A stretch of 34,034 nucleotides of DNA from Verrucomicrobiia bacterium (GTDB taxonomy: Bacteria; Verrucomicrobiota; Verrucomicrobiia; Limisphaerales; DASXHY01), in contig DASSNZ010000412.1 in assembly GCA_035701135.1 (NCBI GenBank), positions 1 to 34,034 on the forward strand. Direction: 5' to 3'. Positions 31,437 to 34,034 of this stretch are shown piece by piece. Both the position numbers and the translations under genes were made by a program. Under the pieces are notes generated by a model. The model saw only the letters and a list, made by a program, of their open reading frames with translations, was not told where the DNA came from and ran no database searches. Position 1 is the first letter of the stretch. Each line of letters begins with the position of its first letter.

Positions 31437-34034
31437 TTAACCCACGACGATGTTCACCAGTTTCTTTGGCACAACGATGATTTTCCTGATCGTTTTTCCT
31501 TCGATGAACGGTTTGATCTTTTCGCTTGCCTGCGCCGCGGTTTCGATTTGTTGCTGCGTCGCATCCGCTGGAACAACAATTTTGTCGCGCAGCTTGCCGT
31601 TCACCTGAACGGGAATTTTCAACGTGTCTTCAACGAGCAACCCCGGATCGAATTTCGGCCATTGAGCGTAAGCCAGCGCGATTCGATGTTCAGTGTTCGA
31701 TGTTCGGTGTTCGATGTTCAACTTTTCCCAAAGTTCCTCCGCCAGATGCGGCGCGAACGGCTGGAGCAAAATCAAAAAATCGCGCAGCGCGGAAACCGGT
31801 TTTGTTTTCCACGTCATCGCTTCGTTGATGAAAACCATCAGGGCGGAAATCGCGGTGTTGAACCGCAGACCGTCCAGATCTTCGGTGACTTTTTTGATCG
31901 TCGCGTGAAGTGTTTTCAGTTGAGCCGGCGTCGGCTGGACCTCTTTGATGGCGGAACTCAGTTTGATCAATTGCAGCAATTCGCCGCGTCTTTCCGCGTT
32001 CGCGGTGGTTTCCGCCTGTTCAAATTCCGTTTCGGATTTTTCATCCACGAACAAGCGCCAGACGCGGCCGAGAAAACGATACACGCCTTCGACGCCTTTT
32101 GTGTTCCATGGTTTTGTGTCCTGAAGCGGGCCCATGAACATTTCGTAAAGGCGAAATGCGTCCGCGCCGTATTCCTTCAAAATGTCGTCGGGATTAACGA
32201 CGTTGCCGCGCGACTTCGACATTTTCTGTCCGTCCTCACCGAGAATAAGTCCCTGATTGACGAGTTTGAAAAACGGTTCCGGCGTCGAGACGTAGCCGAG
32301 ATCGAACAAAACCTTGTGCCAGAAACGCGCGTAAAGCAGATGGAGAACGGCGTGTTCCGTGCCGCCGACGTATAAATCAACTCCTGGCATCGTTGATTTG
32401 AGTCCAATGTCCGCCAACATTGGGCTTTGGACTTTAGCCTTTGGACTCTCCGCGCCCATCCAATAATTCTCCGCCTCTTTGCCAACAAAAGTTTGCGGAT
32501 TCTGCGAGTCAAGATAACGCAAATAATACCAGCAACTGCCCGCCCATTGCGGCATCGTGTTCGTTTCGCGAACGGAACCATCGGGCAAGTTTACCCAATC
32601 TTTCGCGCGCGCGAGCGGCGGCTGGCCATCGGGTGTGGGTTTGTAATCGTCAAGCTTTGGCGGAAGAACGGGCAACTCGGATTCCGGCAACGCTTCGTGA
32701 TAAAGATTTCCGTTCGCGTCGCGTTTCCAAACAATGGGAAACGGCTCGCCCCAATAACGTTGACGCGAAAAAAGCCAGTCGCGCAGTTTGTAATTGATGG
32801 TGCGTTTGCCGAGATTTTTTTCCTCCAACCACGCAATGATTTTTTGTTTGGCTTCAGCGGTGGGAAGTCCATTTAAGAATTCTGAACTGATTGCAATTCC
32901 GGTGTCTTCAAAAGCTTTGAAGTCGGATAAAATTTCACCCGCCTTCGGCTCTCGGGAGACTTCTGCATAAATTACCCTTCCATATTCAGCATCCAGAATG
33001 ACTTCGAACTTACGAATATCCGCCAAAGCATTCTCTAAAGTTTGAGTCCAGTGAGAGTGTGGATATACAACCTGTTTGATTGGCAGGCTAAATTTCCTCG
33101 CAAATTCGTAATCTCTTTGATCGTGCGCAGGCACGGCCATGATTGCGCCAGTTCCGTAACTCGCTAAAACATAATCTGCAATCCAGATCGGAATTTTTTC
33201 GCCGTTCACCGGATTGATTGCGTAAGCGCCGGTGAACACGCCGGTTTTTTCTTTGGCCAGCTCCGTGCGTTCCAAATCCGATTTTTTGGCAACATCCGAT
33301 TTATACTTTGCAACCACTTCGCGTTGTTCCGGCGTCGTAATTTGGTCAACGAGTTTGTGTTCTGGCGCAAGCACCATGTAAGTCGCGCCGAACAAAGTGT
33401 CGGGGCGCGTGGTGAACACGCGAATTTTTGAATCGGCAATCGGCAATCGGCAATCGGCAATCGCAAAATCCACTTCAGCTCCTTCACTACGCCCGATCCA
33501 GTTTCGCTGCATCTCCTTTAGCGAATGGCTCCAGTCAATTGTGTCGAGGTCCTGCAACAATCGCTCGGCGTAATCCGTGATGCGCAGCATCCATTGGCGC
33601 ATCGGTTTGCGGACGACAGCAAATCCGCCAATTTCAGATTTTCCGTCCACTACCTCTTCGTTGGCCAAAACGGTTCCGAGTTCTTCGCACCAATTCACCG
33701 GCGCTTCACTCACGTAGGCGAGGCGTTTGGAATCGCGATAAGCGCGGCGGGGAGAATCGAGCGATACTGTGCCGCCAGCATCTTCCTGGCAGTCGGGACC
33801 TGCCGACAAGATGTCGGCAGCACATTTCAATTCCTCCGGGTATTCCAACGTCTCAATCGGCTCAGCCTTGTTCGTTTTCGGATTGAACCACGAATTATAC
33901 AGCTTCAGAAAAATCCATTGCGTCCATTTAAAATAATTCGGATCGGTCGTGTTCACTTCACGCGACCAGTCGTAGCTGAAGCCGAGGGATTTTATCTGGC
34001 GCTTGAAATTGCTGATATTCGCCTCGGTCGTGAC
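31437..34034 (-). CDS. leuS: Leucyl-tRNA synthetase (N-terminus outside the window)
   Basis: The frame stays open to nt 34034; the listed M at 33956 is an internal GTG in the segment [25 protein letters not shown]. Class I LeuS blocks are [69 protein letters not shown] and KMSKSRGN. Confidence 0.95.
31682..31723. repeat. Six tandem heptanucleotides (TTCGRTG-like), 42 nt, inside leuS
   Basis: The units are ttcgatg, ttcagtg, ttcgatg, ttcggtg, ttcgatg and ttcaact. On the coding strand the tract reads [15 protein letters not shown]. Confidence 0.85.
32426..32446. repeat. Three tandem heptanucleotides (TTTGGAC TTTAGCC TTTGGAC), 21 nt, inside leuS and adjacent to a hairpin at 32401-32426
   Basis: Read directly from the sequence. 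The tract encodes SPKAKVQ. The hairpin is AGTCCAATGT-CCGCCA-ACATTGGGCT, with 7 perfect pairs plus 2 more beyond one mismatch. Confidence 0.8.
33431..33465. repeat. Tandem heptanucleotide AATCGGC x4 plus one degenerate unit (AATCGCA) inside leuS
   Basis: Read directly: aatcggc aatcggc aatcggc aatcggc aatcgca. The tract encodes [13 protein letters not shown]. Confidence 0.85.

Follow-up and report, generated by a model that had tools for sequence, protein, structure and literature searches.

A heptanucleotide-array palindrome in frame within a hypervariable loop of verrucomicrobial leucyl-tRNA synthetase

The leucine--tRNA ligase gene (leuS) that closes the 34,034-nucleotide stretch of contig DASSNZ010000412.1 from a Verrucomicrobiia bacterium (hereafter the window, meaning the whole stretch) carries 69 bp that interrupt a conserved motif of the encoded leucyl-tRNA synthetase (LeuRS). 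We interpret this insert as a degenerate in-frame copy of a dispersed family of AGTCCAA-type heptamer arrays, lodged in a permissive loop of LeuRS and probably neutral, and we give this interpretation a probability of about 0.7. The features on which the argument turns are the following, with TRF standing for Tandem Repeats Finder.

31437..34034, minus strand: leuS (leucine--tRNA ligase), 865 codons plus stop, with the 5' end beyond the window end; from the open reading frame (ORF) and its translation.
32391..32459, minus strand: the insert, called site B; 69 bp, 23 codons, a hypervariable loop after YWM.
32420..32447, minus strand: heptamer array in the insert; TRF period 7, four coding-strand units, encoding SPKAKVQSP.
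32400..32448, minus strand: imperfect palindrome of 49 bp, with an 8-bp terminal inverted repeat and an inner 10-nt repeat.
32388..32390, minus strand: second ATG (Met549), which is ACG (Thr) in the closest relatives.

The leuS frame is free of stops on the minus strand from 31437 to 34034 and encodes a LeuRS fragment of 865 residues whose N-terminus lies outside the window. Its database matches at 70-75% identity are named leucyl-tRNA synthetase, and a phmmer search against solved structures matched the protein to Thermus thermophilus LeuRS (1h3n, E = 5e-166). The Thermus enzyme shows a 23-residue gap opposite the insert, between Met530 and Pro531 as counted from the alignment, and with respect to the canonical W-M/L-P-V-D the clade has 24 extra residues, namely the 23-residue insert and a Gly following Pro. 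The initial annotation had described 69 bp, or 23 codons, interrupting the W-(L/M)-P-V-D motif, and the reading frame, the Thermus gap and the outgroups presented below all bear this out.

The DNA of the insert is repetitive. TRF reported TTGGACT at 32420-32447 in 4.0 copies with 76% matches, and the coding strand reads AGTCCAA AGGCTAA AGTCCAA AGCCCAA; having at least three head-to-tail 7-nt units, the segment is a heptanucleotide tandem repeat, and its pattern was matched in none of 100 shuffles of the window. The array had been described earlier as three heptamers at 32426-32446, of which the array stands and the count becomes four. The palindrome has an exact terminal inverted repeat of 8/8 nt (GAGTCCAA/TTGGACTC, arms at 32441-32448 and 32400-32407), which is short and could be a product of the array structure itself, and an inner 10-nt inverted repeat with arms at 32401-32410 and 32417-32426, paired at 9 of 10 positions. 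The 10-bp stem hairpin formerly assigned to 32401-32426 thus exists as an inverted repeat, but it is weak: the insert hairpin is predicted at -22 kcal/mol, with z = -0.83 against dinucleotide shuffles and z = -2.0 against mononucleotide shuffles. The fold, whose stems are the perfect 8-bp one and the 9/10 one, is A/T-rich and does not exceed shuffles; thermodynamically the hairpin is no better than chance and could be a chance product.

Site B was compared across 119 database proteins (the best matches) and 80 loci from species-representative genomes (GTDB). In the protein collection nothing is closely related to the window LeuRS; the best 119 matches are 70-75% identical and belong to metagenome-assembled genomes of Verrucomicrobiota / Limisphaerales. 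An alignment of LeuS orthologues, proposed earlier to establish whether the segment is present or absent, finds an insert in all of the ~140 close orthologues (Limisphaerales-like Verrucomicrobiota, 62-75% identity), without conserved sequence. The flanks, YWM(G) before and (T)PGVDLY after, are invariant in 119 of 119 database orthologues and in all close GTDB loci. Between them the inserts measure 4-39 residues in the GTDB relatives (62-73% identity) and 6-54 in the database orthologues, and they form ~22 sequence clusters, or ~20 unrelated families, that have neither length nor sequence in common. Overall the site is occupied by 1 to ~190 residues, and its state in successively closer relatives is as follows.

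Outgroups (Bacillus, Planctomycetes, Lentisphaerae, Leptospira-type): W-M/L-P-V-D, or +2 residues.
Distant Verrucomicrobiota (~52% identity): W-M-xGxG-V-D (+2 residues).
Relatives at 62-68% identity: +4 to +10 residues in a plain loop.
Clade at 69-75% identity: inserts of 15-39 residues.

Because the distant relatives and those at 62-68% identity have only +2 to +10 plain residues, the loop is older than the repeat, and repeat content is a feature of one clade.

The largest occupant is a domain of ~190 residues that matches Pfam PBECR3 (E = 1e-17 to 2e-8, above the cutoff) and stands in frame exactly at site B in the proteins P0017, P0088, P0098 and P0107 and in locus L068, whose LeuRS match spans 10001-12979. 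PBECR3 is a phage-type predicted RNase, similar to Barnase/EndoU/ColicinE5-D/RelE. Widely divergent in sequence, the copies in P0017, P0088, P0098 and P0107 retain two motifs, D.Y..RH....H......RG and KR.NG......EE. On a neighbour-joining tree no LeuRS lies nearer to that of the window than P0017. A limited literature search found no report linking PBECR domains to LeuRS. As a separate observation, the 54-residue insert of P0043 resembles a deletion remnant of the PBECR3 domain.

In their DNA, site-B inserts are of four kinds.

Kind 1: period-7 arrays.
Kind 2: period-8 arrays (L008, L010).
Kind 3: an array and then its reverse complement (L002, L001, L026, L009).
Kind 4: G+C-rich hairpins starting with GTAG (L016, L050, L028, L025, L027).

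Many of the insert peptides result from reading a 7-nt unit in three frames, as in NPKSEIRNPKS from (AATCCGA)n, STLNPQPST from (ACCCTCA)n and SPQSTVHSPQS from (AGTCCAC)n. Of 20 distinct site-B inserts, nine fold much more stably than their shuffles (z -2.8 to -9.2; among them L016 at -9.2, L001 and L028 at -5.6 and L002 at -4.6), and those of L004, L011, L012, L015, L017 and L007, plain arrays or loops, have no structure (z ~0 or above). GTAG hairpins, for example GTAGCGGCGG...CCGCCGCTAC, occur at site B and at a second leuS site (site A, below) of several LeuRS orthologues, and the GTAG tag is found in the inserts of L016, L028 and L030.

The commonest family at site B is the AGTCCAA/AGTCCAC palindrome. 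The window insert aligns with the L001 form (P0003-5: GVGSPKPKVQSPKSDLGLQTLDVGLKSTT, z = -5.6) on both arms and with the L007 form on the left arm; compared with these two forms it has fewer bases and a more degenerate sequence. The array palindrome at site B in L001/P0003-5 is stronger, and the window insert is a shortened relative of it. We take the insert for an eroded member of the AGTCCAA/AGTCCAC family, and its 49-bp palindrome for the decayed right arm of an array palindrome. The initial annotation had also proposed a mobile or repeat element in place of an evolved loop, with a duplicated ATG as its target-site repeat. The repeat DNA is there, as an array with a partly complementary arm, but an intact mobile element is not supported, and the duplicated ATG has to be abandoned: the window reads ...TCAACG ATG CCAGGA where L001, L002 and L006 read ...TCAACG ACG CCAGGA, so that the second ATG is a single C>T substitution giving a private Thr-to-Met change.

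Repeats of the same families are dispersed well beyond site B. The insert family of L016 and L050 (CTGTAGCGGCGGTCTGTGACCGCCGC...GGCGACGGTCACAGACCGCCGCTACA) is intergenic in L016 at 7806-7880, within an 85-bp spacer 1.7 kb upstream, and lies between genes also in L006 (8638-8711) and in L003 (~16953, just past ahcY). An AGTCCAA/TTGGACT palindrome stands directly upstream of leuS in L001 (9019-9108) and again in L013. The exact 21-mer (AGTCCAA)3 was found in >120 metagenome contigs, and in 30 of the 80 contigs examined a long open frame surrounds it, extending for 60 codons or more in both directions; only 1 of these 30 hosts is a LeuRS, and a distant one. Five hosts were confirmed with Pfam, namely PheS, dihydroorotate dehydrogenase (PyrD), shikimate dehydrogenase (AroE), the exonuclease VII large subunit (XseA) and UvrA, and judged by eye further ones look like PurL, a CobN-type chelatase (with two arrays), CstA, CtaA and a Ser/Thr kinase. 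The UvrA of metagenome contig L104 holds two different in-frame heptamer arrays, ESKVQSPKSKVE (AGTCCAA) and NQKSEIRNRK (AATCCGA). The array was also present in 24 IMG/VR contigs, to which we give little weight. With >120 metagenome contigs and the intergenic copy of L001, the AGTCCAA heptamer is thus a many-locus repeat, although the window contains no second array of this unit; the earlier expectation of other copies holds for arrays of the same family in other genomes and fails for the 34-kb window.

We also observed C/A-rich 7-/8-mer arrays (AACTCTC/AACCCTC, ACTCCATT) directly before the start codons of housekeeping genes (panK, ahcY), in the flanks of L001 (8248-8284), L002 (6-42 and 15452-15475), L004 (8367-8396), L006, L015 and L016; the second L002 array lies between metK and ahcY. 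These arrays may be leader elements.

Whichever element occupies site B, the reading frame is open in every orthologue. The inserts contain 12.7% hydrophobic residues (FWYILMVC), compared with 32.9% in the whole proteins, and 52% S+P+T+G. Both orientations of (AGTCCAA)n are free of stops, and 28 of the 30 genic copies have the SPKSKVQ orientation and not LDFGLWT. The right arms found in genes deviate from the perfect complement seen between genes (GACTTTGGACTTTG...) and lose Trp and Phe, reading DIGLKST in the window and DLGLQTLDVGLKST in L001, so that LDFGLWT is avoided. The open frames, the composition, the orientation bias and the right-arm deviation all fit an insert that is transcribed and translated as a hydrophilic surface loop, rich in Ser, Pro, Thr and Gly and probably disordered.

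As to its position, the insert had been placed next to the Rossmann-fold core, and it does end 5 residues before a core beta-strand, but at the N-terminal end of that strand, the GGxEH motif, which lines the adenylate pocket, being at the C-terminal end. In Rossmann folds the N-terminal strand end faces away from the active site. By analogy with the fold in general, site B would probably lie away from the adenylate pocket. AlphaFold2 models, suggested earlier as a check on the 23 residues, gave a mean predicted local distance difference test score (pLDDT) of 60 for the window fragment (49 sequences) and 58 for full-length P0004 (98 sequences). The insert was modelled as coil at pLDDT ~26-31 and the adjoining core was also below 50, so that the models are unreliable and too poor to use.

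Site B is not the only repeat-bearing site of the gene. TRF detected three real heptamer arrays in the window, and 3 of 3 lie within leuS, the other two being the following.

33431..33463, minus strand: site A, a perfect (GATTGCC) x 4.7 on the coding strand, encoding 11 residues.
31682..31720, minus strand: site C, (ATCGAAC)-type x 5.4 on the coding strand, encoding 12 residues.

Both sites are gaps relative to Thermus LeuRS and both are hypervariable in orthologues, site C being filled by IQHSTSNIQHPI, SSLVTRHS, TLNSQPST or AGTCC-type palindromes. The same families recur among the three sites: AAVCDRR...DGADTAPLQ is found at A and at B, P0089 having it at both; the SPKSKV...TLD family of the window is found at site C in P0063, P0072, P0046 and P0027; and STLNPQPST and RITHHAS occur at sites B and C. 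All 33 nt of the site-A array agree between the window, L001 and L004, and the 36 nt preceding it differ between L001 and L004 at 7 positions. This pattern points to concerted evolution, a recent spread through recombination or nucleotide-level selection. Across 33 loci, the density of 7/8-mer arrays was 0.41 per kb in leuS and 0.04 per kb in the 10-kb flanks, a contrast of ~10x. Flank genes were called as stop-to-stop ORFs and several arrays assigned to other ORFs are really intergenic leaders, which makes the genic/intergenic split of the flanks rough; the leuS versus flank contrast is real despite these crude calls.

Two further observations concern variable DNA in and near leuS. Window positions 33700-33900 (LeuRS fragment residues ~47-102) encode a clade-specific segment of ~57 residues that is absent from Thermus LeuRS, part of which is hypervariable in orthologues (1-47 residues). 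In L206, positions 4588-4657 and 6957-7005 hold one GTAG hairpin family (CGTAGGACAGGC...), in frame near the 5' third of leuS and directly past its stop.

Two kinds of difference are seen among the orthologues. Length variants of the AGTCC family differ by exactly 7 residues, that is three units or 21 bp (26 versus 33, 30 versus 37), as expected from slippage filtered by the reading frame. Whole elements are also replaced. Over 756 core columns the proteins P0026 and P0041 share 97.5% identity, and their A and C inserts are the same; at site B an array palindrome in one stands against a GTAG hairpin in the other. The corresponding DNA (L206 and L207) shows 2 differences in the first 1800 nt, then a diverged tract of ~250 bp that runs from ~70 nt before the insert to ~30 nt after it, and then identity. 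Judged from this pattern, the difference is a tract of homologous recombination and not an in-place transposition. The neighbour-joining tree is star-like and insertion events are not countable from it. The L206/L207 tract, the star-like tree and the combinatorial patterns at sites A, B and C together suggest that ready-made cassettes are shuffled when alleles recombine through the invariant flanks. Independent transposition was considered as the source of the patchy families and rejected, the sole resolvable pair (L206 versus L207) showing a recombination tract.

Directly upstream of leuS in L206 and L207 (2898-3947) is a gene for an IS200-like tyrosine (Y1/HUH) transposase (PF01797, E = 1e-12). 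It scores 56 bits against the model for transposases associated with repetitive extragenic palindromes (REPs), below the cutoff of 80, and has a C-terminal tail resembling DnaA domain IV and flanking inverted repeats AATTGGGGTCACATCTTAACATTTAAC that contain the motif GGGGWSAS, which belongs to "TIRYT" genes (PMC3733652). The lineage that bears this gene is the lineage with the site-B swap. As a general feature linked to leuS the transposase was discarded, since next to this gene it was found only in L206/L207 and one metagenome contig and is absent from all other leuS loci.

Our proposal for the history of site B joins these elements. A small clade-specific loop of +2 to +10 residues was there before the repeat. 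Among Limisphaerales-like Verrucomicrobiota, repeats of many families now fill it, as they do two or more other leuS loops. The first arrays may have been seeded by slippage with template switching or by the tyrosine transposase. Arrays of relatives differ by three units (21 bp, 7 residues), and the highly conserved flanks appear to let homologous recombination exchange whole cassettes among lineages. Presumably only those orientations, frames and lengths survive that leave an open hydrophilic frame. The insert would be neutral or nearly so for LeuRS, and the window copy an old, eroded relic rather than an active element.

Four results weigh against this account. The ~10x excess of arrays in leuS is more than random insertion and survival in permissive loops can fully explain. 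Three lineages with differing flanking codons share the site-A array unchanged over 33 nt, which hints at concerted evolution or a constraint on the nucleotides and not at pure neutrality. Both AlphaFold models are poor, and the disordered surface loop rests on composition and on the tolerance of large inserts. Lastly, the 34-kb window contains no second copy of the insert with <=3 mismatches, its inverted- and tandem-repeat scans gave no REP family and no transposase was found among its genes, so that any mobility of the window copy is hypothetical.

Other explanations were considered. One is that a nucleic-acid structure is selected, any hairpin serving to slow ribosomes between the Rossmann halves or to provide a processing or regulatory site. 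The nine well-folding inserts out of 20 (z -2.8 to -9.2) speak for it, as do the insert in every close orthologue, the 10-fold array density of leuS over its flanks and a site-A array kept at the nucleotide level. We nevertheless regard it as unlikely, given that many orthologues are unstructured (L004, L011, L012, L015, L017, L007), that the window hairpin is not significant, that a PBECR3 domain or just 6 residues can fill site B, and that these repeats occur in many unrelated genes at unrelated positions.

Equally doubtful is an evolved functional loop of LeuRS, an interaction or regulatory surface whose DNA periodicity would be a by-product of loop growth. It would agree with a clade-wide loop that grows stepwise from the +2 residues of distant Verrucomicrobiota and with the maintained frame and hydrophilic composition. 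A functional surface is harder to reconcile with a loop that lacks sequence conservation between invariant flanks, varies from 4 to 39 residues in length and is drawn from ~20 unrelated families, some of them identical to intergenic hairpins.

No more probable is that sites A, B and C are true cassette sites, whose repeat elements, shuffled by recombination, are kept variable by selection, for example because the LeuRS surface or the leuS mRNA is targeted; the PBECR3 domain would be one of the site-B cassettes. On a related idea, the heptamer arrays would be made or moved by the IS200-like tyrosine transposase beside leuS in L206/L207. The 10-fold excess in leuS, the nucleotide identity at site A and the in-frame RNase domain leave room for such a role.

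The view first taken of the insert, as an intact miniature transposable element of the inverted-repeat type (MITE) with an ATG target-site duplication, has become very improbable. It could appeal to the 8-bp terminal inverted repeats, to a family dispersed in other genomes and to the tyrosine transposase gene directly upstream of leuS in L206/L207. However, the second ATG is ACG in relatives and no duplication exists, the elements at site B have no common boundaries, the window has neither another copy nor a transposase, the tyrosine transposase is missing from all other leuS loci, the one resolved replacement is recombination, and the insert derives from the L001 form by truncation. Removal of the segment before or during translation (as an intein, an intron or a bypassed stretch), or an assembly artefact, is scarcely credible: only the ATG...ATG flanks and the hairpin favour it, a superficial resemblance to the bypass in phage T4 gene 60 with its matched take-off and landing codons and hairpin, while the frame stays open from end to end with no stop codon past the first ATG, no Cys/Ser/Thr and His-Asn intein junction is present, the segment is too short for an intron, and site B is filled in ~140 independent assemblies from different sources. 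Intein, intron and bypass were rejected on the open frame and the lack of a stop codon and of junction residues.

Among described repeats, the closest parallels to the window element are palindromes carried in frame. Some GTAG/CGTC REPs lie wholly inside ORFs of known proteins, often two per gene; in-frame copies are most numerous in the verrucomicrobium Opitutus terrae, where they are doubled in uvrA, and also occur in tRNA synthetases of other species, and the proposal was that in flexible linkers or loops they are neutral (Di Nocera, De Gregorio & Rocco 2013; PMC3733652). The leuS insert resembles them as a short palindromic dispersed repeat in frame in the gene of a known protein, and the double arrays in the L104 UvrA echo the double REP insertions in O. 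terrae uvrA (PMC3733652). REPs of this type have a stable, short and G+C-rich stem-loop (stems of 6-13 bp) and a cognate tyrosine transposase (RAYT or TIRYT) in the genome; the window insert has the 8-bp and 9/10 stems, with an A/T-rich fold no better than shuffles, and the 34 kb available contain no transposase. Unlike a GTAG/CGTC REP, the window palindrome has no GTAG/CTAC or CGTC/GACG flank and is made of tandem heptamers, and that paper (PMC3733652) describes no single site cycling ~20 families and no heptamer-array palindromes.

Rickettsia palindromic elements (RPEs), the classic example of the kind, are selfish palindromes found in frame in many unrelated housekeeping genes; they are translated, and their products are predicted to fit the fold (Ogata et al. 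2000 and 2002, summarised in PMC10969869). They are 100-150 bp long, have conserved family sequences and are restricted to Rickettsia. The leuS insert likewise stands in frame in an otherwise conserved housekeeping ORF, where homologues have nothing corresponding. It differs in its 49-69 bp size, 7-nt units, verrucomicrobial host and high turnover at fixed sites, and with its 69 bp is too short for an RPE family. By analogy, the insert is an element that works like an RPE and not a member of the RPEs.

Heptanucleotide repeats such as TAACTGA (PMC4679880) and GGGAATC or GGGGAYT (PMC4692102), a recognised class of repeats, are reported to be mainly intergenic and under-represented in coding regions. 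These simple sequence repeats, like the short tandemly repeated repetitive sequences of cyanobacteria, consist of tandem 7-nt units in 2 to >20 copies at many loci with a patchy phylogenetic distribution, whereas the leuS arrays are in frame in essential enzymes and often have a reverse-complement arm. MITEs are small, non-coding, multicopy elements with terminal inverted repeats that can give in-frame fusions (PMC10969869); the window copy has such terminal repeats (8 bp) but no target-site duplication, matching insertion sequence or defined ends. The coding palindromes of Nematomorpha mitochondria, inverted repeats in coding sequence with both arms translated (PMC6649704), are those of an animal organelle, much longer, perfect and without heptamer arrays. 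The window element thus works like an intragenic REP or RPE; it has neither the GTAG/CGTC tag nor the size of an RPE, and is best filed as an in-frame heptanucleotide-array palindrome. Within a limited literature search, we found no description of in-frame heptamer arrays in housekeeping enzymes, of a loop with ~20 families or of cassette exchange by recombination, and nothing on heptamer repeats in Verrucomicrobiota.

Elsewhere in the window, positions 776-21464 hold a glycoside hydrolase (GH) cluster of pectin/rhamnogalacturonan type, with GH31, a BNR sialidase-like protein, a GH78 rhamnosidase, two GH28 enzymes, an MFS transporter and GH43. The genes after the cluster encode a GFO/IDH/MocA oxidoreductase, a CN-hydrolase and an FAD-linked oxidase that has Fe-S and CCG domains.

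In-frame selfish repeats are already known from the REPs of O. terrae and the RPEs of Rickettsia, and the leuS case is unusually variable. It implies that dispersed repeat DNA can live in an essential, conserved enzyme a few residues from a catalytic strand, and it widens the range of in-frame selfish DNA from GTAG REPs and RPEs to heptamer arrays. Such repeat segments should be masked in LeuRS alignments and phylogenies. The W-M / P-V-D junction is a natural permissive site, accepting from 1 to ~190 residues, which could be of use in protein engineering. If its RNase domain is active, the PBECR3-LeuRS fusion would represent a new aminoacyl-tRNA synthetase architecture.

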